Counted from the stretch's first letter, positions 312-45,635 are shown. The stretch is DNA of 64,000 nucleotides from Escherichia coli (GCF_050920415.1 NZ_CP169309.1); one strand, 5' to 3'. Notes: a model not told the origin generated them from the sequence alone. Numbers and translations: made by a program.

Positions 312-1223
312 ATGGATGACTGTGGTGCAGTTTTGCATAATATTGAAACAAAATGGCTTTATGATTTTCTGACCCTGGAAAAATGCCGCAACTTTTCCCA
401 GGCGGCAGTCAGTCGCAACGTCTCACAACCCGCATTTAGCCGTCGCATCCGCGCGCTGGAACAGGCGATTGGCGTTGAATTGTTTAACCGCCAGGTGACA
501 CCTCTGCAACTCTCGGAACAAGGAAAAATCTTCCATTCGCAGATCCGCCATCTGCTGCAACAGTTAGAGAGCAACCTTGCAGAACTGCGTGGCGGCAGCG
601 ATTACGCGCAACGTAAAATCAAGGTAGCCGCTGCACACTCTCTTTCTCTCGGTCTTTTACCGTCCATTATCAGCCAGATGCCGCCGCTCTTTACCTGGGC
701 GATTGAAGCCATTGATGTTGATGAAGCGGTCGATAAACTGCGTGAAGGGCAAAGCGACTGTATTTTTTCCTTTCATGACGAAGATTTGCTGGAAGCGCCG
801 TTTGACCACATTCGCTTATTTGAATCTCAATTGTTCCCCGTCTGCGCCAGTGACGAACACGGAGAAGCACTTTTTAACCTCGCACAGCCACACTTTCCGT
901 TACTGAATTACAGCCGCAACTCCTACATGGGGCGATTGATTAACCGTACCCTGACGCGCCACAGTGAGTTAAGTTTCAGCACCTTTTTTGTCTCGTCGAT
1001 GAGCGAGCTTTTAAAGCAGGTTGCCCTCGACGGCTGTGGGATTGCCTGGCTGCCGGAGTACGCCATCCAACAAGAAATTCGCAGCGGGAAGCTTATCGTT
1101 CTGAATCGGGACGAACTGGTGATCCCGATTCAGGCCTATGCATACCGGATGAATACCCGTATGAATCCCGTGGCCGAACGCTTCTGGCGCGAACTGCGCG
1201 AGCTGGAGATTGTGCTTAGCTGA
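312..1223 (+). CDS. hypT: LysR-family transcriptional regulator (hypochlorite-responsive HypT/YjiE)
   Basis: 303-aa ATG-initiated ORF with an N-terminal LysR-type HTH ([30 protein letters not shown]) and a LysR substrate-binding-like C-terminus; synteny with iadA and iraD. Confidence 0.85.
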
Positions 1224-1608
1224 CATTCTCCAGCGTCGCACTACACCAACCGCCACTATCCCAGACCAGATCATACGTTAGCGGTTCATCGTCGTGGTGC
1301 AGCATTATCTCAAGGCTGATCGCCAGCGTGTGGCTGTACGCTTCTTTCAAATTGACCTGCAACGCCGCAATCCGAGGCTCATGAAATAACAGTGCAGAAC
1401 GTAGTTGACGGCAATACCAGCTCTGGAGATGTTTGTCGCTCTGGTTATGCACTTGCCACTCAGGCATACCTGAAACAAGTAATGAAGGTAATGCCGAATG
1501 AGGAGAATTAAAAAGAGTGAGGAGATCGCTGCATACCGATTTACGCAGTGATAACGTTTTATTGCCTGAAATTTCAGGTGAAACAGCCTGAAGTGATTGG
1601 CGCATCAT
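1216..1608 (-). CDS. iraD: Anti-adaptor protein IraD (RpoS stabiliser)
   Basis: Track ORF 1216..1617; probable start at the internal Met (MMRQSLQAV...) giving about 130 aa; position between hypT and yjiC. Confidence 0.7.
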
Positions 1609-2281
1609 TTTGCGCACTCCTGACGTTTAGCAACATATGTGGCTTGCCCTGAATACCGGGCACCACTGTATTGATGCTCATTTTCCATAGCCATTCCCTT
1701 TTGTTCATTACATCCATGTCAGTCTGAGACAGGCCTGAATCCTGTCAGCAAAGTATAAAACCTTACTTGCCTATGAATATCTACTGACTTTTCAGGAAAA
1801 AAGTCATGATTTGATAAAAATCATCAAACTCAAAAAAAAACCGCTAGTATATTCTGAATATTCCGAATAGTTACGTAGATGAAAATACTTGTCACCGCCG
1901 CTACTTAATTTCGGTGGGAGATTATTTATTTCCGCATAATCAGCCATGCATTATTTGAAACAATTAGTTTGTAAATAATATAAATTGATAACATATCAAA
2001 TACATCAAAAACACCATTCACAGGCATTATTAATATAGACATCAATATAACAACATCAAATTCCAATTAGTAATAAGATATGCTTTTAAATTGCATGCAA
2101 ATAATTTTAAATGAGCGTTTTTTGATACTTTAGAGTGTTTCCCACCCTTTAATATCACTGTGTAGAGTTGATATCACTACAACAGAAACATGCATGTCAT
2201 TTGTTTACTTCTCTTTTTACTACAGAAAAATTTATCTATTTTTCTAAAACATCAGTGAAATACTCATAAAAGGTTATTAAT

Positions 2282-3103
2282 ATGTCTATGCCAATAAGCA
2301 ATGCCGCTAACAACAAAATTTTTACAGATAATCATTTCGCTCATCATCCAAATGCCGATAAAGAATTAGCAGACAGTATGCCCTCGCATCTTAACTCGGA
2401 AAACATCTATGTCAGACCTCTTGTTCGTGGAAATAACCATAACTATGATGGGGGAAGTGTTGTCGAAATTAGACAGCTTGAAATTGGTAAACAAGGGTAT
2501 TGGCCATTCAATTACGTAACAGCCGCATGTAAAGAATCCGATGGTATTTCAATCACAGGAAACATACGCTGTGGTACCTGGAAGGCCAGCTCAGTATTAG
2601 ACGGAATATACGGTGGAGTATGTAAAAAGGCGCATGTTTCCGCAGCGTTAGAAGCTGGTCTACGGTTTAACCTAACTATGGATTCTAAAATTCCAAACAC
2701 GATACATGAAATAACCCTAGGCCCTGGTTGCAATGTTCCAGGCTATGCGGGAACCACGATAGGATACCTGGCAACACTCCCCCTTGAAAAGGTTGAAAAT
2801 TGGCAAGATACAACATTGCCAAGAATTGATATCTATATTGATCAGATAATGACTGTGTCAGGGGTAGCAAATTCTTCTGGATTCGCCCTTGCTGCATTAC
2901 TTAATGCTAATATTGGAATGGGAAATGACCCAATAATTGGTATAGAAGCCTATCCTGGTACCGCTGAGATCCACGCTAAGATTGGATATAAAGTTATCCC
3001 CGGGGATGAAAATGCACATGTCAAACGTATGACTCTGCAACCGTCATCTCTCCCAGAACTGTTTGAATTAAAAAATGGTGAATGGAATTATATTGGTAAA
3101 TAA
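2282..3103 (+). CDS. yjiC: Hypothetical protein YjiC
   Basis: 273-aa ATG ORF preceded by a long AT-rich intergenic region; position matches yjiC between iraD and uxuR; no functional motif recognised. Confidence 0.6.
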   Translation: MSMPISNAANNKIFTDNHFAHHPNADKELADSMPSHLNSENIYVRPLVRGNNHNYDGGSVVEIRQLEIGKQGYWPFNYVTAACKESDGISITGNIRCGTWKASSVLDGIYGGVCKKAHVSAALEAGLRFNLTMDSKIPNTIHEITLGPGCNVPGYAGTTIGYLATLPLEKVENWQDTTLPRIDIYIDQIMTVSGVANSSGFALAALLNANIGMGNDPIIGIEAYPGTAEIHAKIGYKVIPGDENAHVKRMTLQPSSLPELFELKNGEWNYIGK

Positions 3104-3243
3104 CCACTGGGAAGAATGAGTACTAACATTCAGGTTATACAGATATTTAAACAATACCCTGCAATTTACAAAGTAATACTCATTGCAACTTCTTAATTTA
3201 AGAAAGCGCAAGGAACGTTTACCCTTGCGCTTATCATAATAAG

Positions 3244-4017
3244 TCAGGCGTCGACTTTATCCAGCGGCCATGAATCAAACAGATAGCCATCAAAATAAAT
3301 ATCGTCAACGTTCGAGAATTCAAGCAGACGTTGCTTCACGTTTTCCAGATGCTGCCACATTGCCAGCTTCGCCGCTCGGGCGTCTTTTTTGATTAACGCG
3401 GCGAGGATCTGTTTGTGATCGCCCAACCACTCTTTGCGATACAGGCTGTCATCCAGATGGCTGTGCAATTGGATCCACATTGGATTGTTTTCCCGCCACT
3501 GCCAGGACTGACGGAATAGCTCCACCAGCATGCTGTTATGCGTTGCTTCGGCAATGGCGAGATGGAACTGCATATCACCGCTTTCGCTGCTACCCGGCGC
3601 GCTGGAAGCCAGTTCACGCTCTTCCAGTTGCAATGCCTGACGCATTTTGACGATATCTTCGCGGGTAGCCTGCAGGGCGGCAAATTCCGCGATGTTACTT
3701 TCCAGTAACTGACGCGCCTGTAACAGCTCAAAAGGACCCGCATCATTGCAAACGTTGGCATCCGGACCGTCTGTGTTCTGGCTGTCTGAGCTATCAAGAA
3801 CATAAATACCGGCACCCCGGCGCACTTCCACCAGCCCTTTGATCTCCAGCATGATCAGCGCTTCACGTACCACCGTCCGCGTGACATCAAGCATTTCTGC
3901 AATTTCACGCTCCGGCGGCAGCCGTTCGCCAGGATTGTACGGCGTCTTTATGATCAGATCGCGGATCATCGCCCCGACTTCCTGGTAAGGTCTTTGCGCA
4001 GAGGTGGCAGATTTCAT
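3244..4017 (-). CDS. uxuR: GntR-family repressor of the uxu hexuronate operon
   Basis: 257-aa ORF with GntR-type winged HTH near the N-terminus (ERLPPEREIAEMLDVTRTVVREAL) and an FCD-like C-terminus. Confidence 0.9.
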   Translation of the reverse strand: MKSATSAQRPYQEVGAMIRDLIIKTPYNPGERLPPEREIAEMLDVTRTVVREALIMLEIKGLVEVRRGAGIYVLDSSDSQNTDGPDANVCNDAGPFELLQARQLLESNIAEFAALQATREDIVKMRQALQLEERELASSAPGSSESGDMQFHLAIAEATHNSMLVELFRQSWQWRENNPMWIQLHSHLDDSLYRKEWLGDHKQILAALIKKDARAAKLAMWQHLENVKQRLLEFSNVDDIYFDGYLFDSWPLDKVDA

Positions 4018-4052
4018 GGTGTTGTGTCCGTTAGGTGCAGTTAATCAAATTT

Positions 4053-4090
4053 TTGCCGGATGCGTCGTGCACGCCTTATCCGGCCTACAA
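4053..4090. repeat. REP (repetitive extragenic palindromic) element
   Basis: tgccggatgcgtcgtgcacgccttatccggcctacaa, the typical E. coli REP consensus, in the uxuR-uxuB intergenic region. Confidence 0.5.
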
Positions 4091-4230
4091 CGGGCGATTT
4101 TACGGCCCCCGTCAATCTCAAACTATACCATTAGCACTGGAAGTTGGCACGTACAGGTGGGCAAAAAACGAAAACTGGTCAACCAAATATTATTTTGATT
4201 GACCAGTAAGTCTGTTGGGTAATCAGTTAG

Positions 4231-5691
4231 TTACAGCGCAGCCACACACTCGCGCGCACCGCGTTCGCACAGCTGCTGATATGCCGCCGTCACCGCGCCA
4301 ACAAAGTCGGCATTCTGCGGCAGATCATCGGCAAAAATACCGCTCAGGCCCAGCAGCGCTTTCACGCGGTCTGCGCCCTGATACTGCGCGTTAATCTTCT
4401 GGAACTCGGCCAGCATCGGGTCAACCACGTCAATGGCATTACCCTGCTCATCCACACCCTGGGTGTAGCGCATCCAGCCAGCCACGCCGAGCGCCAGGTG
4501 ACGCCAGCTACCGCCGTTTTGTAGGTGCAGACGCACCGGGTCCAGCAAACGCTGCGGTAACTTCTGGCTGCCGTCCATCGCAATCTGCCAGGTACGGTGA
4601 CGCAGAGACGGGTTGCTGAAACGCTCGATCAGCAGCGTCGCATAGGCGTTCAGGTCCGTACCTTCCGGCATCGACAGCGTTGGCGCTTGTTCCTGCATCA
4701 TCAGGGCAAAGGCCGCTTTGCGATAATCCGGATTAGTCATGGTGTCGGCAATGGTTTCATAGCCGCCGAGGTAACCGAGGTACGCCAGGAAAGAGTGGCT
4801 GCCGTTCAGCATACGCAATTTCATCATTTCGAACGGCACAACGTCTGCAACGAACTGTGCGCCCACTTTATCCCAGTCCGGGCGACCATTAACGAAGTTA
4901 TCTTCAATCACCCACTGACGGAACGGTTCGCAGGCAATGGCACACGGGTCATAAACACCCAGCTGGTCAGCAATTTCCTGTAAGGTTTCTGGCGTCGCAG
5001 CCGGAACGATGCGGTCAACCATGGTGCACGGGAAGGTGACATTCTCTTCAATCCATGCAGCCAGCTGCGGATCACGCGCCTGAGCCAGCCCCAGAACGGC
5101 AACTTTTGCCACGTGGCCGTTTTCACGCACGTTGTCGCAGGACATGACAGTAAACGCTTTCAGCCCTTTTTCACGACGCAGACGCAAAGCTTCAACGATG
5201 TAACCAATCGCGGACTTCGGCGCAGTCGGGTTTTCCAGATCGTGCTTGATCAGCGGGTTATTGAGATCCAGCTGACCGCTCGCCGCATCGGCGCAATAAC
5301 CTTTCTCTGTGACTGTCAGGGAGACAATCGCCGTCTGCGGACGCGCCATCGCGTTGAGAATACCTTCACAACCGTCGATTTCCGGGTGCAGCGCTTCTTT
5401 CATCGAGCCAATAATTTTCAGCTCGGTGCTTTCTGCGCCTTTTTCCGCTACGGTGTACAGCAGTTGCTGTTTTTTCAGGTTTTCGATCAGCACACGGTCG
5501 TTGCCTGGCATCAGGTTAACTTCGCAGATCCCCCAGTCGCTATCCGTGCTTTCCAGCAGGTGATGGGTGTACAGCGCCTGGTGCGCGCGGTGAAACGCCC
5601 CGCAACCGAGATGCACAATGCGTGATTCCAGACGAGAATGATCCCATGACGGGCGGGCAACCGGCAGATTGCTGTCAACAATAGTAGTCAT
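4231..5691 (-). CDS. uxuB: D-mannonate oxidoreductase (fructuronate reductase)
   Basis: 486-aa ORF with an N-terminal Rossmann fold (VHLGCGAFHRAHQA), mannitol-dehydrogenase family; synteny uxuA-uxuB-uxuR. Confidence 0.9.
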   Translation of the reverse strand: MTTIVDSNLPVARPSWDHSRLESRIVHLGCGAFHRAHQALYTHHLLESTDSDWGICEVNLMPGNDRVLIENLKKQQLLYTVAEKGAESTELKIIGSMKEALHPEIDGCEGILNAMARPQTAIVSLTVTEKGYCADAASGQLDLNNPLIKHDLENPTAPKSAIGYIVEALRLRREKGLKAFTVMSCDNVRENGHVAKVAVLGLAQARDPQLAAWIEENVTFPCTMVDRIVPAATPETLQEIADQLGVYDPCAIACEPFRQWVIEDNFVNGRPDWDKVGAQFVADVVPFEMMKLRMLNGSHSFLAYLGYLGGYETIADTMTNPDYRKAAFALMMQEQAPTLSMPEGTDLNAYATLLIERFSNPSLRHRTWQIAMDGSQKLPQRLLDPVRLHLQNGGSWRHLALGVAGWMRYTQGVDEQGNAIDVVDPMLAEFQKINAQYQGADRVKALLGLSGIFADDLPQNADFVGAVTAAYQQLCERGARECVAAL

Positions 5692-14870: not shown

Positions 14871-15419
14871 TTATTGATACTGAACCTTGAAGGTCGCATC
14901 CGCATTAGCAGCACCTGGGGTTGCGGCACCGGTTGCAAAGTAACGCGCCTGGAACGGAATGGTGTTAGTACCGTTATTCAGGGTTGTTTGTGCACTAAAT
15001 GTCGCACCGTCCAGCGCCAGCGCAGCACCGGTTCTGTCCAGAATTTGCACACCAACGTTTGTTGCGCTACCTGTAGCAGAACTCTGCAGAGCCAGTACAT
15101 CAGTATGCGTAGCATCAATTGCCGTACCTAAGAAGGCAACAGCGGCTTTTGTAGCAACAGTGGTATCGCAATCATTCAGCTGAATGTTAAAACCAACGGC
15201 AGAGCTGGTTGCTCCAGTCTGCTTCAGGCTAGCGGTACGAACCTGTCCTAACTGAACGGTTTGATCAACAGAGCCTGCATCAACTGCGCAAGCGGCGTTA
15301 ACAACTTCCCCTTTGAAGTGAACGGTCCCACCATTTACCGTCGTAGTATCGGCCAGAGCCGCTGCGGAACTGAGGGACAGAGCCGACAGAACAACGATCG
15401 CCAAAGTTTTAATTTTCAT
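14871..15419 (-). CDS. fimA: Type 1 fimbrial major subunit FimA
   Basis: Start at [23 protein letters not shown] (182 aa) rather than the upstream non-ATG of the track ORF; C-terminal ...ATFKVQYQ. Confidence 0.95.
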
Positions 15420-15537
15420 GCTGCTTTCCTTTAAAAAAACTGTTTCTAAATCGACATGGGCAGTCGTTCTGTACACTTTGTTTTGAAACGAATTGGACTG
15501 CCAACACTGCACAGTTCTTCCCCAAAAGATGAAACAT

Positions 15538-15851
15538 TTGGGGCCATTTTGACTCATAGAGGAAAGCATTACGCACGAACTTTCTTAGTTTATTATTTGG
15601 ATTTATATTCTATTAATACATTCTTTTATAGATTTTCATATTGAACACGGTGGTTTTTGGAGAGATGAATGAGGAAGTTGCTTCGAGACACAGAAACGTT
15701 AACTTTACCTATAGCGGAGGTGATGTGAAATTAATTTATAAGAGAAACAATTTACATATCAAACAGTTAGTTGCTTTATATCGTTTTTTTATATTTTTAT
15801 GCTTGAGAACAAATACAAAACTTTTTTATGATATGGACAGTTTGGCCCCAA
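15538..15851. promoter_or_regulatory. fimS: fimS invertible phase-variation switch (314 bp) bounded by 9-bp inverted repeats; carries the fimA promoter
   Basis: ttggggcca at 15538-15546 and its exact reverse complement tggccccaa at 15843-15851, 314 bp end to end, lying between fimE and fimA. Confidence 0.85.
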
Positions 15852-15898
15852 TTGTCTTATATTTCTTTATCTTTTCATATTATTATCAATAAGTTACA

Positions 15899-16495
15899 TC
15901 AGGCATCTTCTCTTTTTAATTTTTCGTTTATGAGATTATTTCTTTCCCATAATCCGGCAAAACGTGCAGCATTACTGGCGGTATAACGCACAGTATGGCG
16001 AATATTTCGATGCCCGAGATAATCCTGAATTAAACGGGTATCTGCACCACGCTCCGCCAGTTCATAACCGCAAGCATGCCTTAACATATGAGGATGAGTC
16101 TGCGTCACGGTTCCAGCTTCAATACCGGCATCGCGAATAATGCGATAGGCCTGCTGGCGAGAAAGTCGACTCCCGCGGCGAGAAATAAATATGGCGTCGG
16201 TCTGGTCAGCGCCTTTCCAGTTAGTACGTTCCTGGGTCCAGCGCTCCACAGCTTCACGCTCATCAAAACGTAACGGGTGAACGGTAGAAAATCCGTTCTT
16301 CAGTCGGCGGATATTTATTCGACCTTCGTTAAGGTCAAGATCCTGATAATGCAGATCAAGCAGTTCACTAATACGCATCCCATGCCGATATGCCAACAAA
16401 ATTAGGCAATAATCTCTGGCTCCCGTTGCCCCGTAACAAACCGCCTGCATCATGTCCTGAACTTCTTTACCGGTAAGATAACGACGTTTACTCAC
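15899..16495 (-). CDS. fimE: Tyrosine site-specific recombinase FimE (ON-to-OFF inversion of fimS)
   Basis: 198-aa ORF with integrase-family catalytic residues (HPHMLRHACGY...LGHRNIRHTVRYT); the recombinase gene nearest fimS. Confidence 0.95.
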   Translation of the reverse strand: MSKRRYLTGKEVQDMMQAVCYGATGARDYCLILLAYRHGMRISELLDLHYQDLDLNEGRINIRRLKNGFSTVHPLRFDEREAVERWTQERTNWKGADQTDAIFISRRGSRLSRQQAYRIIRDAGIEAGTVTQTHPHMLRHACGYELAERGADTRLIQDYLGHRNIRHTVRYTASNAARFAGLWERNNLINEKLKREDA

Positions 16496-16972
16496 AATAG
16501 TAGTACTCCTGACTGAGATATATTTGAATGAATACCTATAGGAAACCTCGATCGGTTAAAATTAGCCCAATAGATAAAAAGATAACCACACAGGAAGTTA
16601 TGTGGCTATCAGTCAATTACATTAAATATCATACAAAAATAAAATATCACTGATGTGACAACATCTATTTTCATTGATTTGATTCAATATAACAATAGAT
16701 TGCAGCGGATTAACTTCCAGTTGCTTAAAAAATAAAGAAAAAAGTGCAGAAACAGGAGAACTTGAGTGATGTGTAAATTTATGAATGATTTTGTTTATTT
16801 ATTTTGAAGAACATAAACCATTGTATTTTGTATGGATATGGTTAACTTAATGTTTATTATGATAATTAAGGATCACACTTACAATAACATCAATTAATAA
16901 ATGGTTAATCATTTTTGATATATCGTAAGAATAATGTATTTTTTAACACCATCCCTGGTATCTCATCTATCT

Positions 16973-17575
16973 CTATAAAACAGCGTGATGCTGTCGTCCT
17001 CTGGCTCTATCCCAGATGCCGTAAAAACGCCCTGCATTGCTGGCGGTATACCAGACAGTATGACGAATATTGCGATGCCCAAGATAATCCTGGATAAGTC
17101 GTGTATCTATTCCCATATTCGCCAAAGCAAAACCACACGAATGGCGTAACATATGCGGATGAATCTCCAGTGATAACCCAGCATTACCACCAGAAGTCGA
17201 GATAATATGGTAAAACTGTTGCCGAGAAAGCGGGTTCCCCTTACGTGATAAAAATACCCACTCGCTCTCAGCATGCGGATAAGAAGTACGTATACTCAAC
17301 CAGTTTTTTAAAGCCTGAACTTCTTTGTTCAATAGCGGGTGCGTTGTTGAAAAGCCTTTTTTTAATCGATGGATATATATACACTTTGCCTTAAGATCAA
17401 TATCCGAAATCCTCAATCGACAAATTTCACTCGCCCGGAAACCATGAATAAAACAAAGCAAAGTCAGACAATAATTACGTGCTGCATGAGGCCCGGTATT
17501 TGCTGCTTTAAGGAGTGACTCGATTTCACTATGGGTCAGGAAGTTCCTTTTTTTGTTATCAGCCTTATTCTTCAT
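16973..17575 (-). CDS. fimB: Tyrosine site-specific recombinase FimB (bidirectional inversion of fimS)
   Basis: 200-aa paralogue of FimE (HPHMLRHSCGF...LGHRNIRHTVWYT), upstream of fimE. Confidence 0.95.
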   Translation of the reverse strand: MKNKADNKKRNFLTHSEIESLLKAANTGPHAARNYCLTLLCFIHGFRASEICRLRISDIDLKAKCIYIHRLKKGFSTTHPLLNKEVQALKNWLSIRTSYPHAESEWVFLSRKGNPLSRQQFYHIISTSGGNAGLSLEIHPHMLRHSCGFALANMGIDTRLIQDYLGHRNIRHTVWYTASNAGRFYGIWDRARGRQHHAVL

Positions 17576-19002
17576 CGTTTTCCCTTATAATTACAGACGC
17601 GCACTAGCTGTGCTGGGTTAGCAATAATCCAACATTTTAATCCTGATTATGTTTATAAAAGCGAACGTTTGCTTAATAACTAACGTAAGTGGACCAGTTC
17701 TTCTGAGTGAACTTAAATGGAGTAGCGATAGTTACTTATAATAACTTTGCCATACAAACGCCATGCTCTTGCATGCTATGTACCTTTATATATTTATCAA
17801 TCTGATACGAATCTAATAATAACCCTCATCATTAATGCAACTAATCTTATCTATATATCATGTGATATGTTCTGTAACAAGTAAAATCAACATAAAAAAT
17901 TCAGCAAAATTTAATATTCGTTCAACTAGCCGTCTCACATATGACATTATTAGTCAACTGCATTTGCCACAAGATGGCTATTTCATGGAACGCAGTAATT
18001 TCTTAGCGTCTATTATCATGCTAATTCTTAGGTCCCTAGCGATTATTCCAGCCTGGTTCGTCAGCTTACGCCATGAGATTGCTACATTCCTTTTTATCAT
18101 GGAGATATGGGGGAAAGCAGGCGACGCTTTTTCATCTACATTCATTGGTAAATATGGCTTTGGTCACTACGCCTTAAACCTTCTTCAATCACAGCTATTC
18201 GCCGGGCGATACGGCAAACAAACTAAGTGAAGCATCATCCTGAAAACACCAATGCGTACTGAACATCAACAAGCCTCTCCTGATCGACTTCAGAAGTGAC
18301 CAGTTACAAGCCACAAACCTGGAAACATATTTCATGATGAGAATTATGCTCAGCCTGATGGCGGGTAAACACTTATTTTCACCACGCTCACTGAGTTAGC
18401 CAGCAAAGGCCTCTTGTTTAGAGAGCAAATAAATTACATATAAAACAAATAGTTAATCAAATATCTTTGATTTGTGAAGGCCATCGTAAGTGTTCGTCTG
18501 ACTTCACATGGCATCTTCTTCATAGAAAAATATAGACATATTTTGTGACACGAATTGCAAATCTGGTTTTGTTATATGGATTGTGTGATTTTTGATCTGG
18601 TATAACAGGTATAAAGGTGTACCGCAGTAGTCAATGAGACTGAGCATCTCGCAATCTATGACAAACATCACTTCAGTCTGAAAGGAATATGAAAATGAGA
18701 TCAACAGACACTCTATTTTATGACTCTGGATAAAATGGATTGAGTAAGTGATATAGCTTACGAACATTCAAATCAATTAAACATCAGAAGAGATTTTATA
18801 CTCAGGTATTTAATCTGGTTCTCTGTTTATTTAAATAATGTGGAAGATAATTTTCACAGGAGACCTTATACAAAAAATATAAAATACAGCTACCAGTTAC
18901 CAAAGACACTATAAGCCTGGCAAAAAATATTACACAACATAAATGCTAATTGTTTATGCGGGCTTTGTATTGCTTTCTGTATCCTACAAATGAGTGAAAT
19001 TT

Positions 19003-19719
19003 ATGAAAAAGGCTAAAATACTTTCTGGCGTATTATTACTGTGCTTTTCGTCACCATTAATTTCTCAAGCTGCGACACTAGACGTACGTGGTGGATATCG
19101 TAGTGGAAGCCACGCCTATGAGACTCGACTCAAAGTCAGTGAGGGATGGCAAAATGGATGGTGGGCAAGTATGGAAAGTAATACCTGGAATACCATTCAT
19201 GATAATAAAAAGGAAAATGCCGCACTCAATGATGTTCAGGTTGAAGTTAATTACGCGATTAAACTTGATGATCAATGGACGGTGCGCCCGGGAATGTTAA
19301 CGCATTTTAGCAGCAACGGCACACGCTACGGACCCTACGTAAAACTGTCCTGGGACGCGACAAAAGATCTTAATTTTGGCATTCGCTATCGTTACGACTG
19401 GAAAGCTTACCGACAACAAGACTTATCCGGTGAGATGTCTCGTGATAACGTTCATCGTTGGGATGGATATGTCACTTACCATATTAATAGTGATTTCACC
19501 TTCGCATGGCAAACGACGCTATACAGCAAACAAAACGATTATCGCTATGCAAACCATAAGAAATGGGCGACGGAAAATGCATTTGTTCTACAATACCATA
19601 TGACGCCTGATATTACGCCATACATAGAATATGACTACCTTGACCGTCAGGGTGTTTATAACGGCAGAGATAATTTATCAGAAAACAGTTATCGCATTGG
19701 TGTGTCATTTAAACTGTAG
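19003..19719 (+). CDS. nanC: KdgM-family outer-membrane channel for N-acetylneuraminic acid
   Basis: 238-aa ORF from MKKAKILSGVLLLCFSSPLISQA with a beta-barrel-like alternating pattern and C-terminal ...YRIGVSFKL. Confidence 0.85.
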   Translation: MKKAKILSGVLLLCFSSPLISQAATLDVRGGYRSGSHAYETRLKVSEGWQNGWWASMESNTWNTIHDNKKENAALNDVQVEVNYAIKLDDQWTVRPGMLTHFSSNGTRYGPYVKLSWDATKDLNFGIRYRYDWKAYRQQDLSGEMSRDNVHRWDGYVTYHINSDFTFAWQTTLYSKQNDYRYANHKKWATENAFVLQYHMTPDITPYIEYDYLDRQGVYNGRDNLSENSYRIGVSFKL

Positions 19720-20845: not shown

Positions 20846-20909
20846 CGCTTCAGGGCCCCAGTAAAGGGGCCCTACTATCAATTTATCATTTCAATTACGC
20901 GAAAATTAT

Positions 20910-21890
20910 ATGAACGCAATAATATCGCCCGATTATTACTATGTTCTTACCGTTGCTGGTCTGTCTAATGCCATGGCGTATGGCGAAGGACTGCCATTAC
21001 CGGACAGGGAAGATACGCCTCATCCCAGAATTAAACAATTAGCGAGATTTGCGCATACGCATCCCGGAGGCCCGTCATGTCACTTTAACGACATTATTCC
21101 ACTGACTCACTGCCCACACGATGTTCAGGATATGCAGGGTTATCACCATCCTCTGGCAACGAATCATCAAACACAGTACGGCACCGTTGGCCAGGCTCTG
21201 CATATTGCACGGAAATTACAGCCCTTTATTCCTGATAACGCGGGGGTTCTCATCGTTCCATGTTGCCGTGGCGGATCGGCTTTTACTGCGGGCAGCGAAG
21301 GGACATATTCAGAACGGCACGGAGCCAGCCATGATGCTTGTCGTTGGGGAACGGATACCCCTCTATACCAGGATTTAGTCAGCAGAACGCGAGCCGCACT
21401 GGCAAAAAATCCGCATAACAAATTCCTCGGCGTATGCTGGATGCAAGGCGAATTTGACTTAATGACAAGTGACTACGCGTCACACCCTCAACACTTTAAT
21501 CATATGGTTGAAGCCTTTCGTAGGGATCTAAAACAATACCATTCTCAGCTTAATAATATTACTGGCGCGCCGTGGTTTTGCGGCGATACCACCTGGTACT
21601 GGAAAGAAAGTTTCCCTCATGCGTATGAAGCTATTTATGGCAATTATCAAAATAATATTTTAGCCAATATTATTTTCATCGACTTCCAGCAACAAGGTGA
21701 AAGAGGGCTGACGAACGCGCCTGATGAAGATCCGGACGATTTAAGCACGGGATATTTCGGTTCAGCGTACCGGTCACCGGAGAACTGGACGACGGCACTG
21801 CGAAGCAGTCATTTCAGCGCGGCAGCCCGTCGGGGGATTATTTCTGACAGGTTTGTAGAAGCAATTTTGCAGTTTTGGAGCGAAAGGTGA
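20910..21890 (+). CDS. nanS: 9-O-acetyl-N-acetylneuraminate esterase (YjhS)
   Basis: 326-aa ORF downstream of nanM in the same orientation. Confidence 0.8.
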   Translation: MNAIISPDYYYVLTVAGLSNAMAYGEGLPLPDREDTPHPRIKQLARFAHTHPGGPSCHFNDIIPLTHCPHDVQDMQGYHHPLATNHQTQYGTVGQALHIARKLQPFIPDNAGVLIVPCCRGGSAFTAGSEGTYSERHGASHDACRWGTDTPLYQDLVSRTRAALAKNPHNKFLGVCWMQGEFDLMTSDYASHPQHFNHMVEAFRRDLKQYHSQLNNITGAPWFCGDTTWYWKESFPHAYEAIYGNYQNNILANIIFIDFQQQGERGLTNAPDEDPDDLSTGYFGSAYRSPENWTTALRSSHFSAAARRGIISDRFVEAILQFWSER

Positions 21891-22472
21891 GCGGGGAGTT
21901 TATTCATGGGGGATGTCCTTGTCCGTTCCCAAAACAGGCAACAAAAAACAAATGAGATCAAGGTAATATCTCTTCACTTGCAGGCTCGAACAGCAGGCAA
22001 TTGCCAATATAATAATCTGGCACAAGGGTGAAAAACGCGCACCGCATAAACCGTTGTTATTGCTTAAAGATTAGCCGGATGCCTTAATAGACATCCGCGC
22101 CTTTTCGATTATGGCTCGGAAATCTACGAACCTCTGCACAGTTTACTGGAACGTTTTGGACCACAGCGTTCACAGTACCGACCTGATATGCCGTTCTGGC
22201 GATTATAAGGCGACGGATTCTGGCAAATAGACGATGATAATATGCTTAATGATGTTCAAAGAAATTAGGCCATCATTATATTATTGCTTGCATTTTCTTT
22301 CATTCCCAAAAGCACCCGCCATTAATCCCAGGCGCATTATGCAAAGGAAAATGATTAGGTAAACAATAAGATTTATAATCAGGAAAGGCGACTCGCAATA
22401 AAACGCAAAGTCGCCTTAACATTGGTAAAATATGCCCTTTACTACTCCTGTATCATGAACGGCTCATCACAT

Positions 22473-25400
22473 TTAAAGCTGACGTTGATCCAGACTGCTA
22501 TATATTGCCTTTATTTCATTTTTTACGCTTTCGCCACGGTACACCAAAGACGTATCGTATCGTTGATACTTATCTTCCCGTGCAGCACTGAACCAGTTAA
22601 AAGATCCGACACACAGCAGTTCTTCATCCTCAATCACAATTTTGCTGTGGACACGATTAACCAATTTCGTAGCGATACCCATCTTATTGAGCTTTTCAAC
22701 AGCATCATTCAGCAGATGTTTTTTCTCCTGACGCTTATCATCATCGACATGCGCTATATTGCAGTTTTTATCCGTCACCACAGTAATATCAATGCCCCGG
22801 GAACGGGCCAAAGCCATTGATGCCAGAAATCCCGTTTGCTCCATTTTTTGCCAGGATAACCAAGGGGAAATAATCGTTATTTTCTTTTGAGCTCCGGCAA
22901 GAGTCATGTTCAAAAATTCATCATGCTGCTCCACGCCATGCAGCGTTGAAATTTGTGTATGTGCGGAAATTAAATCCTGTCGTTTATGAAACTCAAATTG
23001 CAACGCATTATTATCTGAAGAAAAGAGATATTTTGCCAATAACCCTCGCGGCGAAAATGCGGGCTGCATCTCGATAAGGTCCATATCGCCAAATACCAGA
23101 AAACTATCTTTAGCGCGTGAGACAGCAACATTGAGGATACTGCTGTTGCTATCAAGAAACCTGCCATCTTCATGTTTTGAGTAGACTGGAGAAAAGAGAA
23201 CAATCGCCCTTTCCGCCCCCTGCAAGGAGTGCACAGTCCCCACTGTCAGTGAACCCTCCTCGTCTTTGCCATTAATTTCCAGCTTACGCAATGACGTTTT
23301 GATAGCATTAACCTGCGCCGAAAATGGCGTCACAACACCAACAACTTTGTACAGTGGTTCCCCGTAATGGCGCTCTATATCATCCTTATGTGCCACCAGC
23401 CATGCTGCTATTGTTTCAGCTTCAAGAGGGTTATAACGGCTCCCCCCATTTGGCTTCATGCCTCTACCATCAATATGTAAATATCCCATTGCGGGGAAAA
23501 TCGTCCCTTTTTCCATCCCTCTTTTAGGCTGCAACTTACCGTGATAGCAAAGTGAGTTACAGTAGCCGATGATGTTATTGAAACAGCGACGATGCTCATA
23601 CAGATACATTCCGCGCTCGAACTTGGGATCATACTGGTAGTGAGAGTTAAACTGGGCTACCTGCATTACGCTGCCAGATGCTGCACTTTTTCCAGACCCA
23701 CACACGTGAGTATATGTATTTATTAACTCTTCCTGAGTGCCACCAGAAATAATATTCTCCTCAAGCATATTGCCCATATCAGTGACGGGTAGACAATTCC
23801 AGATTGGAGCTATTTGCTCCGTATCGCCAATCACCAGCGCTTTCTTCGCCAATGCAAAGGAAGCTGCAGCAACCTCCGGGAGTACCTGCCCGGCTTCATC
23901 GACAATCAGTAAATCAGCAAAGTTATATAAATAATTATTATCCGATGTTCTATCGCCACCAAAAGATTTTCTTCTGTTCATATGGTAAGGCAACATGTAG
24001 CAGGTCATCACCACACAAGGAGTAAGTTTCATTCTTCTTAGCCAACGAGCCTCGGCGATAGTTATCCCGGTAATTCCTTTTTCTTTTTGCAAATTATCTA
24101 TAGCTGCCATATCAATCAGCCAACGCCCCTCCCAATAATGGGTCGCTACCAAGAACGCTGGAAAACGAATCTGAGTATCGGCAAGTTCATCCGCTCCTGA
24201 AAGATTCAATTCATCGTCACCTCTGTAACCCAAAGCATAAGTCAACTCACGCCATTGTTTTGCAGCTTCTATTTCGCGTCGGGCTATATCCTTCGCATAG
24301 TTGATGTTCTGTTGGCACTCATCCTGCTCCTTTTGCGTTTTAGCAATCAAACTATCAATAAATTCATCAATATCTTCGGGATAATTTCCCTGGAACGATG
24401 TCATTCTTGTGCCAAACGTAGAGTCCAGGAAGAGGTTAATCTGGTAATGGCGTTTAGTACGAACAGCAGGAAGCCATGACAAAACCGCATACACTAGCGA
24501 CTCATCAGCACGGTATTGCTGCCACTGCTTTTTACCTCTTGTTAAAAGTGAAATTTCATTGCCAATATTGAGAAGACGTGTGTTTTCGTCCTGAAGATAC
24601 TGGTCGAGATTCTCACTGATGGCTCGCTGTTCATGGCGGATATCATTAAGCCTGCGCCATGTGGGTTCGATTTGCTGAAGTTGAATAAACTGTGAAGTTA
24701 AACGTTCATGCAAAAGCGTCACTACATGCTCTGGTGAATTGCACTCTCCAGCTCCAAACGCCACCTCCGCTTTTTCAAGGTAAAATGCCCGGGCTTTTTC
24801 CAGATATTCCTGGGATTCAACGTGGTTAAAAAAATCTTCAGTCTGGTATTTCTTCGCAGCCTCAACCTGACGGCTTTTAGACGGAAAATAAGCGCCATAG
24901 CTTATTACCTCCGGCAACCAACGACCAGCCATTACGCCAAAACCAGTAGAGAAATCTTTTCCAAAGGCTTCAATAATATTGGTGACGGCCTGATTGTTAG
25001 TTGATGTGGCAATAATTACAGGAGGTTCAGCTTGATTAAGTGCGGCTCTAGTCCATTCGGTGGCGATAATAGAAAGCACCAGCGTAGTTTTACCCGTTCC
25101 CGGAGGACCGTTAACAGCGAGCATATCCCCCTGCTGTTGAGTCAGATAATGGCTCAGGGCATCGCGCTGCGCCACTGCCAGCGGAAACTTATCGCCGGAA
25201 TGCCCCAGACGTTCGCAGAACATAGCATTCTTAGCGAGAAGTGGCTCTAGTGGAACCATTTCATTTGAGGCAAAACGCGTTAATAGAGGAACCTTAACCT
25301 GGCTCATCAGCAGATGGTCATACAAAGGCAGGATATGAACACTGGCCCCTACATGCTGGCTAGCTTTAACAATATAACCGTATCCAGCCCGTTCGTATGG

Positions 25401-39048: not shown

Positions 39049-41903
39049 TGGAAAAGACATACAACCCACAAGATATCGAACAGCCGCTTTACGAGCACTG
39101 GGAAAAGCAGGGCTACTTTAAGCCTAATGGCGATGAAAGCCAGGAAAGTTTCTGCATCATGATCCCGCCGCCGAACGTCACCGGCAGTTTGCATATGGGT
39201 CACGCCTTCCAGCAAACCATCATGGATACCATGATCCGCTATCAGCGCATGCAGGGCAAAAACACCCTGTGGCAGGTCGGTACTGACCACGCAGGGATCG
39301 CTACCCAGATGGTCGTTGAGCGCAAGATTGCCGCAGAAGAAGGTAAAACCCGTCACGACTACGGCCGCGAAGCTTTCATCGACAAAATCTGGGAATGGAA
39401 AGCGGAATCCGGCGGCACCATTACCCGTCAGATGCGCCGTCTCGGCAACTCCGTCGACTGGGAGCGTGAACGCTTCACCATGGACGAAGGCCTGTCCAAT
39501 GCGGTGAAAGAAGTTTTCGTTCGTCTGTATAAAGAAGACCTGATTTACCGTGGTAAACGCCTGGTAAACTGGGACCCGAAACTGCGTACCGCTATCTCTG
39601 ACCTGGAAGTGGAAAACCGCGAATCGAAAGGTTCGATGTGGCACATCCGCTATCCGCTGGCTGATGGCGCGAAAACAGCAGACGGTAAAGATTATCTGGT
39701 GGTTGCGACTACCCGTCCGGAAACCCTGCTGGGCGATACCGGCGTGGCCGTTAACCCGGAAGATCCGCGTTACAAAGATCTGATTGGCAAATATGTCATT
39801 CTGCCGCTAGTTAACCGTCGTATTCCGATTGTTGGCGACGAACACGCCGATATGGAAAAAGGCACCGGCTGCGTGAAGATCACTCCGGCGCACGACTTTA
39901 ACGACTATGAAGTCGGTAAACGTCACGCCCTGCCGATGATCAACATCCTGACCTTTGACGGTGATATCCGTGAAAGCGCCCAGGTGTTCGATACTAAAGG
40001 TAACGAATCTGACGTTTATTCCAGCGAGATCCCGGCAGAGTTCCAGAAACTGGAGCGTTTTGCCGCGCGTAAAGCAGTCGTTGCTGCGGTTGATGCACTC
40101 GGCCTGCTGGAAGAAATTAAACCGCACGACCTGACCGTTCCTTACGGCGACCGTGGCGGCGTAGTTATCGAACCGATGCTGACCGACCAGTGGTACGTGC
40201 GTGCCGATGTACTGGCGAAACCGGCAGTTGAAGCGGTTGAGAACGGCGACATTCAGTTCGTACCGAAGCAGTACGAAAACATGTACTTCTCCTGGATGCG
40301 CGATATTCAGGACTGGTGTATCTCTCGTCAGCTGTGGTGGGGTCACCGTATCCCGGCATGGTACGACGAAGCGGGTAACGTTTATGTTGGCCGCAACGAA
40401 GACGAAGTGCGTAAAGAAAATAACCTCGGTGCCGACGTTGCCCTGCGTCAGGACGAAGACGTTCTCGACACCTGGTTCTCCTCCGCGCTGTGGACCTTCT
40501 CCACGCTCGGCTGGCCGGAAAACACCGACGCACTGCGCCAGTTCCACCCAACCAGCGTGATGGTATCCGGCTTCGACATCATCTTCTTCTGGATTGCCCG
40601 CATGATCATGATGACCATGCACTTCATCAAAGATGAAAATGGCAAACCGCAGGTGCCGTTCCACACCGTTTACATGACCGGCCTGATTCGTGATGACGAA
40701 GGCCAGAAGATGTCCAAATCCAAGGGTAACGTTATCGACCCGCTGGATATGGTTGATGGAATTTCTCTGCCGGAACTGCTGGAAAAACGTACCGGCAATA
40801 TGATGCAGCCGCAGCTGGCGGACAAAATCCGTAAGCGCACCGAGAAGCAGTTCCCGAACGGCATTGAGCCCCACGGCACTGATGCCCTGCGCTTTACCCT
40901 GGCCGCACTCGCTTCTACCGGTCGTGACATCAACTGGGATATGAAGCGTCTGGAAGGTTACCGTAACTTCTGTAACAAGCTGTGGAACGCCAGCCGCTTT
41001 GTGCTGATGAACACAGAAGGTCAGGATTGCGGCTTCAACGACGGCGAAATGACGCTGTCGCTGGCGGACCGCTGGATTCTGGCGGAGTTCAATCAGACCA
41101 TTAAAGCGTACCGCGAAGCGCTGGACAGCTTCCGCTTCGATATCGCCGCAGGCATTCTGTATGAATTCACCTGGAACCAGTTCTGTGACTGGTATCTGGA
41201 GCTGACCAAGCCGGTAATGAACGGTGGCACCGAAGCAGAACTGCGCGGTACTCGCCATACGCTGGTGACTGTACTGGAAGGTCTGCTGCGCCTCGCGCAT
41301 CCGATCATTCCGTTCATCACCGAAACCATCTGGCAGCGTGTGAAAGTACTTTGCGGTATCACTGCCGACACCATCATGCTGCAACCGTTCCCGCAGTATG
41401 ATGCATCTCAGGTTGATGAAGCCGCACTGGCCGACACCGAGTGGCTGAAGCAGGCGATCGTTGCGGTACGTAACATCCGTGCAGAAATGAACATCGCACC
41501 GGGTAAACCGCTGGAGCTGCTGCTGCGTGGTTGCAGCGCGGATGCAGAACGTCGCGTAAATGAAAACCGTGGCTTCCTGCAAACGCTGGCGCGTCTGGAA
41601 AGCATCACCGTGCTGCCTGCCGATGACAAAGGTCCGGTTTCCGTTACGAAGATCATCGACGGTGCAGAGCTGCTGATCCCGATGGCTGGCCTCATCAACA
41701 AAGAAGATGAGCTGGCGCGTCTGGCGAAAGAAGTGGCGAAGATTGAAGGTGAAATCAGCCGTATCGAGAACAAACTGGCGAACGAAGGCTTTGTCGCCCG
41801 CGCACCGGAAGCGGTCATCGCGAAAGAGCGTGAGAAGCTGGAAGGCTATGCGGAAGCGAAAGCGAAACTGATTGAGCAGCAGGCTGTTATCGCCGCGCTG
41901 TAA
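39048..41903 (+). CDS. valS: Valine--tRNA ligase
   Basis: 951-aa ORF with class I HIGH ([13 protein letters not shown]) and KMSKS motifs and a C-terminal coiled coil. Confidence 0.95.
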
Positions 41904-41924
41904 TCAACACCGTGATGAAAACGA

Positions 41925-41951
41925 AGGCCGGAGCATGCTCCGGCCTTTTTT
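41925..41951 (+). terminator. Intrinsic terminator after valS, possibly bidirectional with yjgN
   Basis: aggccggagc-at-gctccggcct hairpin followed by tttttt, between convergent valS and yjgN. Confidence 0.6.
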
Positions 41952-41956
41952 ATCTC

Positions 41957-43153
41957 TTACAGAAATGGTAAAGAAGGCATAACTCCCCGAGAAATACTGG
42001 CTAAGAAGCCTTTATCTGGTTGTTCTTCTTTATTGATTAAAGGAAGGTCATCCAAATCGCCCAGCAAATACGTATTTTTTGCCTGCCAGTCAATCATCCA
42101 TATTTTCAACAGTGGATAAGCCAGACCGCCCGTAATCCCGGATATCACCACCAACGCACACATGCGATAAAGCATACCGTGGTACGTTAAAGTTGAGCGA
42201 AAACGAATACGCCCATCATTCAGTGATAGGTTGCTCATAAAATGGTTTCGCAACGACACCGTTAAATAACTGGTGCTAACAGCAATCCCAAAATAATAGA
42301 TTAACTGCGCGATTATCATTTTACGTTGCATTTCCATAAATTGCTGTAAATTCTCAATGTCATCATTTGCATATACAGAACTATCATACGCATTTAATAT
42401 TTGATCGAAGATAATATAACCAGCAACAGCGAGAAAAGGCAATAAAGCTAAAAATGCGAGAATGGCATATTTTATACAATACGTAGTATCTAATTTCACC
42501 TTGAAACGATGTATACCGAAACTGGTATTGCTCCAGAGAAAACTCATTACCAGACTATATAAAGTACCATTAAAAATACCAATGGAAACAATACCAACTA
42601 TTGCCATCAGAACCATAGATATAATAACACTACTTGAACTATTGGCATGTAGCATCTTTGTCGAGATAAAGAAAACAGTCCCCATCCCAACGGCCATTAA
42701 AATCGGCAAGAAAAAGGTCACCCACCAGAACCCTTTCATAGAGCAATTAAAACTAAATCTTACGCCGTTGAGACTGGTCATTAAGGCCTGATGACGCAGT
42801 CCTTTTGCTGCCATAAATATAAGCAAAACCAACAGTAACAAAGTCAAAACACAACCAACAAGCGGCATATCTGCTGACACTGTCATTAAGATTGCGAAAT
42901 AGAAAAAAACAAAAACAAGACAACTAACAAAAACATTCCCACCGGTAATTCCATAAGAAAATCGTTGTCCGTTAACTTCCATATTAGCATAAAGATAACG
43001 CTTACATTTCATTAATGCCCATGGTAAATAGATACCTAACGTTATAATCGTTAACAACACATTCACCACACAAATAAGAAAATACCTCTCACCTGTACCA
43101 TGAAAAACAAACGAATGGGACGGAACATCCATTTCATTAATAACTTGAGCCAT
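41957..43153 (-). CDS. yjgN: Inner-membrane protein YjgN (DUF898-like)
   Basis: Track ORF is 407 aa; start probably at the internal MAQVINEM giving about 398 aa; multiple hydrophobic helices. Confidence 0.75.
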   Translation of the reverse strand: MAQVINEMDVPSHSFVFHGTGERYFLICVVNVLLTIITLGIYLPWALMKCKRYLYANMEVNGQRFSYGITGGNVFVSCLVFVFFYFAILMTVSADMPLVGCVLTLLLLVLLIFMAAKGLRHQALMTSLNGVRFSFNCSMKGFWWVTFFLPILMAVGMGTVFFISTKMLHANSSSSVIISMVLMAIVGIVSIGIFNGTLYSLVMSFLWSNTSFGIHRFKVKLDTTYCIKYAILAFLALLPFLAVAGYIIFDQILNAYDSSVYANDDIENLQQFMEMQRKMIIAQLIYYFGIAVSTSYLTVSLRNHFMSNLSLNDGRIRFRSTLTYHGMLYRMCALVVISGITGGLAYPLLKIWMIDWQAKNTYLLGDLDDLPLINKEEQPDKGFLASISRGVMPSLPFL

Positions 43154-43345
43154 AAAAAATCCCTGAATTAAAAAATCCATTGATATAACTTATATATACA
43201 GACAGTAAAATGTTCTGCCACGTTACAATACTCTTATCAGTAATAGACTGGCAAAAACTTTATTACTTTATAAGTCGCTTGCGCACGTAAGAAGAGAGTG
43301 GTATTAAACAAATGTATAATTACTTTATTTTTATTGGGTTAAACT

Positions 43346-43849
43346 ATGAATAACATTGCGCCGCAATCACCTGTAATGCGTCGCCTGACGCTGCAGGATA
43401 ATCCTGCTATCGCCCGCGTCATTCGTCAGGTATCCGCCGAATACGGTCTTACCGCTGATAAAGGCTACACCGTCGCCGATCCGAATCTTGACGAGCTGTA
43501 TCAAGTGTATAGTCAGCCTGGCCATGCATATTGGGTAGTTGAGTACGAGGGTGAAGTGGTCGGCGGCGGTGGGATAGCGCCATTAACCGGGAGTGAGTCG
43601 GACATTTGCGAACTGCAAAAGATGTATTTTCTTCCGGCTATCCGCGGCAAAGGGCTGGCAAAAAAACTGGCCTTAATGGCGATGGAGCAGGCGCGAGAGA
43701 TGGGTTTCAAACGCTGCTATCTGGAAACGACAGCTTTTTTAAAGGAAGCCATTGCGCTTTATGAGCATTTGGGCTTTGAGCATATCGACTATGCGCTTGG
43801 CTGCACGGGCCATGTCGATTGTGAAGTGCGGATGTTGCGCGAACTCTAA
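43346..43849 (+). CDS. yjgM: GNAT-family N-acetyltransferase
   Basis: 167-aa ORF with an acetyl-CoA-binding-like motif (RGKGLAKKL). Confidence 0.8.
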
Positions 43850-43909
43850 AAAAATGCCCGCGTGTTCAACTCGCGGGCATTCGAACATTAACAACGTACG
43901 TTTTGTTTA

Positions 43910-43993
43910 TGCCGGATGTGACATGAATGCCTTATCCGGGCAACAAATTCACCAGGTTGCAGGAACTACCTGGGCCTGATGCGCTACGCTTAA
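43910..43993. repeat. REP elements
   Basis: gccggatgtgacatgaatgccttatccggg and gggcctgatgcgctacgc between yjgM and rraB. Confidence 0.5.
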
Positions 43994-44410
43994 TTAGTGG
44001 CGAACTCCGTCATCGTCTTCATCGACAAAATCTTCATCGTCGCCATCTTCGCCGTTAGGATCTTCAAAGTAAGTGCCCCAACCGTCGTACTCAACGTCAA
44101 ATTTCTCTGCCAGCGTCATCAGTTGTTCAACCTGGGCATCGATCAGATCGGCATTCAACGCGCACTCGCTGAGGATGTCGCAGCAAATCACCACATCACC
44201 ATCCTCTACTTCCAGTTCTTCCGGATCGGTGACTTCATATCCGAGTTTAAACGCTTCTACCGCTGCTTTCTCCAGCGTTTCAAGGTCGTCTGCGGAAAGA
44301 TGGTGCTCAATGGTGTACAGCGCATCTGGATCGCTGCCATCTTCCAGTAATTCTTCAATAATTAAACGTGTTTCTTCACGCTGTTCTTCCAGTTGTTCCG
44401 GGTTTGCCAT
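43994..44410 (-). CDS. rraB: RNase E inhibitor RraB
   Basis: 138-aa acidic ORF ([29 protein letters not shown]... with a D/E-rich C-terminus). Confidence 0.85.
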
Positions 44411-44507
44411 GGCTCATTCCTCTTAATGTCCTGCCGATACTCTTATTGTCACACACCACTGACATTGCCTCCACCTTTGTGATAAAGATTTATGCTTTAG
44501 ACTTGCA

Positions 44508-44544
44508 AATGAATAACCATACATATAAATTGAATTTTAATTCA
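44508..44544 (+). promoter_or_regulatory. argI promoter region with tandem ARG boxes (ArgR operators)
   Basis: tgaattttaattca palindrome at 44531-44544 with an adjacent tgaataaccataca half-palindrome, about 30-60 bp upstream of the argI ATG. Confidence 0.5.
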
Positions 44545-44571
44545 TTTAGGCGTTAGCCACAGGAGGGATCT

Positions 44572-45576: not shown

Positions 45577-45592
45577 TTGACATCTCTATAAA

Positions 45593-45635
45593 GATGCCGG
45601 GAAATACAAAAAATATCCCGGCATCATATTATTTT
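45593..45635. terminator. Probable bidirectional intrinsic terminator between argI and yjgL
   Basis: gatgccggg-N15-cccggcatc hairpin with A/T runs on both sides, between convergent genes. Confidence 0.55.

Follow-up and report, generated by a model that had tools for sequence, protein, structure and literature searches.

The control region of iraD is already well characterized in Escherichia coli K-12 and provides the closest described system for the locus analyzed here. Sass, Ferrazzoli and Lovett considered the 672-bp interval upstream of K-12 iraD to be of exceptional size for E. coli and placed two transcription starts within it, at -417 (P1, induced at the stationary-phase transition) and at -137 (P2). 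In their work, both promoters responded to ppGpp, were induced by AZT independently of LexA, and were repressed by DnaA-ATP; DnaA bound cooperatively across the 672-bp fragment, and SspA acted on the region as well. Park et al. (2017) described four CsrA sites in the K-12 leader and an iraD Shine-Dalgarno sequence sequestered by structure, together with a 27-codon reading frame (ORF27, now idlP) with a stop codon overlapping the start of iraD, resulting in translational coupling. Repression of iraD by CsrA was found to proceed entirely through blocked initiation of ORF27, which was presented at the time as a new CsrA mechanism. Two further reading frames between P1 and P2, ORF23 (ytiC) and ORF47 (ytiD), were also reported to be translated, with iraD unaffected. 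In addition, H-NS is reported to inhibit IraD expression (Battesti et al. 2012, as cited in later work).

Two more general classes of system bear on this region. The first is upstream-ORF-mediated translational coupling, which the iraD leader resembles in that the idlP stop overlaps the iraD start (ATGA) and that, in K-12, translation of idlP opens the hairpin sequestering the Shine-Dalgarno sequence; it differs in that CsrA acts at the initiation region of the upstream ORF, far from the ribosome binding site of iraD. The second comprises the H-NS-associated "promoter islands" of Panyukov & Ozoline (2013), who listed the K-12 yjiC/iraD region (526 bp, 4554354_526) as one of 78 such islands, bound by H-NS in two ChIP data sets (Kahramanoglou, Oshima) and with its genes flagged as foreign by three predictors (GIST, Nakamura and Lawrence). 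In the abstract of that work, promoter islands are described as yielding short abortive oligonucleotides. The present locus shares with these islands its high AT content and a gene flagged as foreign, and its K-12 orthologous region is itself on the list; however, promoter islands are regarded as "transcriptionally defective", whereas the iraD/yjiC region of K-12 holds two productive, regulated promoters.

The locus examined here lies in a stretch of 64,000 nucleotides of E. coli DNA (NZ_CP169309.1), hereafter the window, whose first letter is position 1. According to the RefSeq annotation of an identical locus, hypT (312-1223, plus strand) is followed by iraD (1216-1608, minus strand, with the A of the start codon at 1608), which encodes the 130-aa anti-adaptor of RssB, by yjiC (2282-3103, plus strand), which encodes a 273-aa DUF2686 protein, and by uxuR (3244-4017, minus strand). 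The divergent iraD and yjiC genes flank an AT-rich gap of 673 bp (1609-2281), the second longest of the gaps between long ORFs in the window. Its position and gene order are those of the 672-bp K-12 promoter/leader region. From 1200 to 3300 the sequence was 100% identical to strain MFDS1022581 and 89.5% identical to K-12; the gap itself was 97.8% identical to K-12, with 15 differences (substitutions or indels) in 673 bp, and its identity per 100 bp (95-100%) was higher than that of hypT and iraD (92-98%). K-12 had been assumed as the source in a first-pass annotation of this DNA, but the strain is a different one; the DNA identity of its yjiC to the K-12 counterpart is only about 78%, and the protein identity 69%. 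The convergent hypT and iraD genes share 8 bp at their 3′ ends (1216-1223). The iraD product matched the NCBIfam IraD equivalog (E = 5.6e-86) as well as Pfam GPW_gp25, and it also gave a weak match to a TssE baseplate model; a baseplate protein of a phage or a type VI secretion system thus appears to be the origin of the IraD anti-adaptor.

The long AT-rich gap between divergent genes described in the first-pass annotation was borne out by composition. GC content was 0.319 for 1609-2281 and 0.316 for 1618-2281, compared with 0.484 for the whole window, and 1.3% of all 664-bp windows within the 64 kb reached a value as low as that of 1618-2281. AT content climbed toward yjiC, with GC values of 0.467 over the P2 leader (1609-1745), 0.307 over 1746-2025 and 0.254 over 2026-2281, the last of which, comprising the P1 promoter and the region upstream of yjiC, is the most AT-rich part; over 1746-3243, GC was 0.357. 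Of the edges first proposed for the gap, the right one (2281) was correct, while the left one (1618) had followed a GTG-extended ORF 9 bp longer than annotated iraD, which begins at 1608. Likewise, the run of nine A residues placed at about 1845 is real and lies at 1832-1840, within ytiD; it is the sole homopolymer of at least 9 bases in the 64 kb. The term "spacer" proved inappropriate: RefSeq annotates three small minus-strand genes inside the gap (idlP, an ORF of the ytiC type and a homologue of ytiD), for all of which translation has been reported, and iraD leader transcribed from P1 makes up 62% of the gap (417 of 673 bp), as judged from the start mapped in K-12.

Other AT-rich troughs were seen at 15150-19070 and 41860-47620. 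The first corresponds to the regulatory region of fimA-fimE-fimB-nanC, in which the gaps have GC values of 0.277-0.287. Within the second, a 407-aa ORF (41957-43180, GC 0.369) is probably yjgN and a 555-aa ORF (45634-47301, GC 0.324, with a GC3 of 0.291, the minimum of the window) is probably an annotated "DNA-binding protein"; both assignments were made by the coordinate offset to the related genome NZ_CP169399 (MFDS1022581), from which the window itself does not come: an IS2 located past nanM in the nan gene area of that record (against about 20900-22500 of the window) shifts downstream coordinates by about 1336 bp. In the uxuR-uxuB spacer (4040-4085, minus strand), an Rfam match to naRNA4 reached 30 bits, below the gathering score of 59.5, and is probably a REP-type repeat.

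We consider it very likely that 1609-2281 is a divergent regulatory region common to iraD and yjiC, the same as that dissected in K-12 and a composite of three parts. With the A of the iraD ATG set to 1608 and the published K-12 positions projected onto the window, P1, P2, the four CsrA sites (BS1-4), the DnaA box and the overlap of the idlP stop with the iraD start were all base-identical to K-12, and all 15 differences fell outside them. The proximal part, at about 1609-1803, would constitute the iraD control module, with P2, the CsrA sites, the 27 codons of idlP and the DnaA box. The distal part (1804-2059), specific to the common arrangement of the locus, would contribute P1, with its 417-nt leader, along with ytiD and ytiC, and the remaining 222 bp (2060-2281) would have to carry the yjiC promoter. 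From 1873 onward, the distal part would form a single AT-rich insertion/deletion block together with the 222-bp region and yjiC, the intergenic portion of which is reported to be bound by H-NS in K-12. Coordinates, K-12 identity, composition, conservation and the insertion/deletion were computed here, whereas promoter activity, the binding of CsrA, DnaA and H-NS, and translation are taken from the K-12 literature, function being carried over on the basis of the 97.8% identity. The earlier suggestion of a complex promoter region for stress-regulated iraD was right and had already been established in K-12, for which two promoters, control by ppGpp, SspA and DnaA, and CsrA-dependent coupling have been published.

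In the proximal module, the published P2 start projects to 1745 (-137, minus strand), and a -10 hexamer, TATACT, could be read from the sequence at 1757-1752. The CsrA sites follow on the minus strand: BS1 (1736-1745, ACAGGAUUCA), whose GGA lies 3 nt after the P2 start in exact agreement with the remark published for K-12; BS2 (1711-1720, GACAUGGAUG), with a published footprint from -112 to -103; BS3 (1692-1698, GGGAAUG; footprint -90 to -84), which overlaps the idlP Shine-Dalgarno sequence; and BS4 (about 1684-1687, UGGA; published footprint -78/-77). The DnaA box TTTTCCATA at -81 (1681-1689, plus strand) matched the sequence and position given by Sass et al., was found by a pattern scan and is the same as in K-12. 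The 27-aa iraD leader peptide is encoded by idlP (1605-1688, minus strand, RefSeq), whose end, ...GCA AAA TGA, overlaps the iraD ATG at 1608; it differs from K-12 IdlP at two residues (C12Y and A17T).

Conservation was most pronounced in this module. Across seven E. coli strains, the core at 1689-1803, which spans the CsrA sites, the P2 start and promoter, and about 45 bp upstream, contained no polymorphic column in 115 bp, where the density seen in hypT and iraD (6-9 polymorphic sites per 100 bp) would predict about 7.5. The idlP frame, ending in ...RQECAK with its stop over the iraD start, was kept both in E. albertii and in an alternative E. coli locus type, and identity to E. albertii reached 92-94% over 1601-1650 and 1751-1800 (94% in the latter). 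Judged by these alignments, the P2/CsrA/idlP module is the old, constrained and conserved part of the region. Folding of the P2 leader RNA did not show stability above that of shuffled sequence (z = -0.80), so that the evidence for the hairpin sequestering the Shine-Dalgarno sequence is the published structure mapping. DnaA-box-like sites were not enriched in the gap (3 versus about 1.65 expected). The consensus promoter scan found 4 promoter-like sites in the gap against 7.1 expected from shuffles, and thus no excess; it missed P2.

The same scan independently recovered the hexamers of P1, TTGATG-16-TATATT, with the -35 at 2059-2054 and the -10 at 2037-2032 (minus strand); the published start (-417) projects to 2025. 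Downstream lie ytiD (ORF47 in K-12; 1804-1947, minus strand), a 47-aa ORF in which the A9 run is read as FFF, and a ytiC-type ORF (1926-2042, minus strand) annotated by RefSeq as a 38-aa "hypothetical protein". The Pfam YtiC model (PF23685) matched the latter with E = 1.4e-25 over residues 6-38, that is, 33 aa beginning at 2027, and the published start of ORF23 in K-12 corresponds to 1994. The annotated ATG at 2042 lies upstream of the P1 start and over its -10 element, and it was created by a SNP at 2041 (C in K-12) that adds an upstream start codon here. The 38-aa call is probably over-extended, because its ATG exists only through this SNP. The AUG of the 33-aa Pfam YtiC occupies 2027-2025, coinciding with the mapped start of P1; this raises the smaller possibility that YtiC might be translated from a leaderless P1 transcript.

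These distal elements had a narrower distribution. Homologues of ytiC and ytiD were absent from E. albertii, and ytiD was not conserved in the alternative E. coli locus type; ytiD, ytiC, P1 and 2066-2281 carried 5-13 polymorphic sites per 100 bp in the seven strains, equal to or above the coding flanks. By this comparison, P1 and the two small genes ytiC and ytiD belong specifically to the arrangement common in E. coli. In strain A29, the tract is A10 in place of A9 and ytiD is annotated as frameshifted, and ytiD therefore looks dispensable; homopolymer slippage at the A9 tract can switch ytiD off.

The gap was present in 4,903 of 5,426 complete E. coli genomes and yjiC in 4,895; about 10% of these genomes thus lack the gap, counted irrespective of their locus arrangement. 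One alternative order, dhaL-ptsP-iraD′-uxuR, is seen in NZ_LR778142 (locus coordinates 2465-3261), in which an iraD′ of 78% identity is separated from uxuR by 413 bp, and yjiC, P1, ytiC and hypT/iadA are missing. Homology to the window ends there at 1872 and resumes at 3244. The AT-rich insertion/deletion block is thereby delimited to 1873-3243; it takes in the 5′ part of ytiD, ytiC, P1, yjiC together with its promoter, and the spacer between yjiC and uxuR. E. albertii (locus coordinates 633-4134) keeps the order iraD-gap-yjiC-uxuR; its dhaL-ptsP left flank and the boundary at about 1872 are those of the alternative type, yet it carries yjiC. Since E. albertii has the gene, the block is old, and its absence from the minority locus type may equally reflect deletion of ancestral DNA. 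E. coli, Shigella and E. albertii were the only sources of YjiC relatives in the searches made: among 1.84 billion representatives, all matches were fragments from YjiC's own family, and a peptide-pattern scan of genome contigs, which reaches close relatives and is weak on distant DUF2686 members (YjfZ), returned E. albertii only. IS1 insertions were observed in the AT-rich gap of several strains, and in NZ_AP023286 (locus coordinates 2681-4231), two IS1 copies replace the segment from upstream of P2 up to uxuR, with loss of yjiC.

The gene at the center of the block, yjiC, was described at first pass as AT-rich and uncharacterized, which is accurate. Its GC content is 0.409, and its GC3 of 0.314 is the second lowest among 51 long ORFs (window median, 0.534); YjiC matched Pfam DUF2686 over its full length (residues 1-273; E = 2.7e-113; 378 bits against a gathering cutoff of 25), a family that NCBI terms "YjfZ/YjiC family". 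Comparison of the YjiC sequence with the PDB gave nothing better than E = 0.08, and neither a PADLOC defence family nor an NCBIfam model matched. An AlphaFold2 model built from a 9-sequence alignment was unusable (mean pLDDT, 34.8). The annotation of SYNB1934, a Nissle 1917 derivative, lists yjiC (locus coordinates 1708-2458) as a pseudogene with a frameshift.

The yjiC allele of this strain is rare, with 7 of 4,895 genomes at least 99% identical to it and 4,879 at 60-80%. Identity to K-12 fell from at least 95% before the start codon to 58-82% just after it and recovered to at least 90% past about 2900, so that most of the divergence lies within roughly the first 205 codons (sharpest at 2300-2900) between flanks of 95-100% identity. 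Over these first 205 codons, dS was 0.72 and dN/dS was 0.37 against K-12, a depth like that of the comparison with E. albertii. Taken with the near-identical flanks, these values indicate that yjiC truly encodes a protein, that constraint on it is relaxed, and that its allele lineages are either very old or imported. Deep allele lineages (dS about 0.7) whose divergence begins abruptly at the start codon and ends as abruptly near codon 205 would also suit long-term diversifying or balancing selection on yjiC, an Escherichia-restricted gene that shares its control region with iraD and, like it, is induced by replication stress, but we regard such selection as rather improbable; were it true, the gene would face a partner that varies (phage, host or competitor) and would not be a silent relic. 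Gene conversion from a paralogue was considered as a source of the divergent allele and was unsupported, as the median genome had one matching place in the distant DNA mode of the search.

Upstream of yjiC, the promoter scan did not detect any plus-strand match to the sigma-70 consensus within the 222 bp at 2060-2281. This segment is only 46-65% identical to E. albertii, and a 15-nt patch, AAATGAGCGTTTTTT (about 2109-2123), is identical there amid surroundings of only about 50-60%; the patch could be a regulator binding site or chance. A 673-bp gap in which 2060-2281 has no assigned function and such a patch has been kept might be thought to hide an undescribed element, whether a small RNA, a riboswitch or the remnant of a mobile element, but the scans make this very improbable. 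When 1000-4300 was compared with Rfam (E values of 1 or less), only sub-threshold chance matches resulted, the sole one inside the gap being to a eukaryotic snoRNA model that scored 22 bits where the gathering score is 50; a terminator scan found no terminator-like site; and a repeat search yielded nothing beyond a 23-nt pair of 74% identity and an inverted pair of 14 nt (1963-1976/3164-3177), both judged to be chance in AT-rich DNA. Moreover, 1850-2280 is poorly conserved in E. albertii (46-62%) and as polymorphic as the coding flanks.

The two remaining explanations concern the AT-richness itself and what it does. It may be native, with promoter, UP-element and curved-DNA needs plus mutation bias shaping a long regulatory gap without any transfer, and yjiC being an old, lowly expressed gene under weak codon selection. 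That other gaps of the window are AT-rich too, down to the values of the fim switch region, that the order shared with E. albertii places the block before the species split, and that neither a mobility signature nor a donor was found are all consistent with this idea. We nevertheless consider it unlikely, since promoter needs cannot account for the GC3 of yjiC, the alternative locus type lacks the block, no family member outside Escherichia/Shigella turned up among the representatives searched, and three independent predictors call the K-12 genes foreign. Somewhat less unlikely, although still doubtful, is that the region is chiefly a promoter island, an H-NS-held, heterochromatin-like array of overlapping RNA-polymerase sites whose mostly abortive transcription serves mainly to keep yjiC silent. 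Its listing as such in K-12, its H-NS occupancy in both ChIP data sets and the abortive products described for such islands favor this possibility. Productive, regulated transcription from P1 and P2 in K-12 and the lack of an excess of promoter-like hexamers do not. In K-12, LexA-independent AZT induction further raised ytiC 260-fold (the strongest response of any gene), ytiD 33-fold, idlP 18-fold, iraD 14-fold and yjiC 11-fold, and the induction of all five genes means that the region is clearly not transcriptionally dead.

A composite divergent regulatory region, part of which lies in a possibly acquired or orphan block, remains the reading we prefer. The block displays several features expected of H-NS-silenced acquired DNA, namely high AT content, atypical codon composition in yjiC and a patchy distribution within and between species. 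The GC3 of yjiC sets it apart from the other ORFs, so that composition leaves the idea of a foreign origin standing. No flanking repeats, tRNA or integrase indicative of mobility were found around the block, no phage carried a match to yjiC in the phage search, the plasmid matches were non-mobilizable records of 0.37-4.9 Mb, probably chromosomal DNA filed as plasmids, with no true plasmid among them, and the searches made identified no donor lineage. The first-pass proposal of an older, horizontally acquired segment thus draws support from composition, the insertion/deletion polymorphism and the Escherichia/Shigella-only relatives, and none from a donor or mobility signature; an old foreign or orphan origin of the block is supported, not proven, by its composition, its distribution and the published K-12 data. 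Silencing by nucleoid proteins, proposed in the same annotation, fares similarly: it is supported, not proven, by the publication of the K-12 region as an H-NS-bound island and by the reported H-NS inhibition of IraD expression. A scan for high-affinity H-NS motifs showed no enrichment in the gap and was uninformative. On the strength of the K-12 data, silencing of an old, AT-rich, lineage-restricted block by H-NS is a plausible reading, and we infer that it would extend to this strain.

Collectively, our analysis adds minor new points to a control region already known from K-12: the invariance of the P2/CsrA core in seven strains, the tie of P1, ytiC and ytiD to the common arrangement, and the rare divergent yjiC allele. 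It opens no new question. As worked out in K-12, this region sets the level of IraD and thereby the stability of the general stress sigma factor RpoS when DNA is damaged and when cells enter stationary phase. Here, P1 and the small genes ytiC and ytiD are part of an AT-rich block that is younger and is linked to yjiC, which is highly polymorphic. The locus may be of interest for the question of how AT-rich DNA of possibly foreign origin gets recruited as regulatory sequence.
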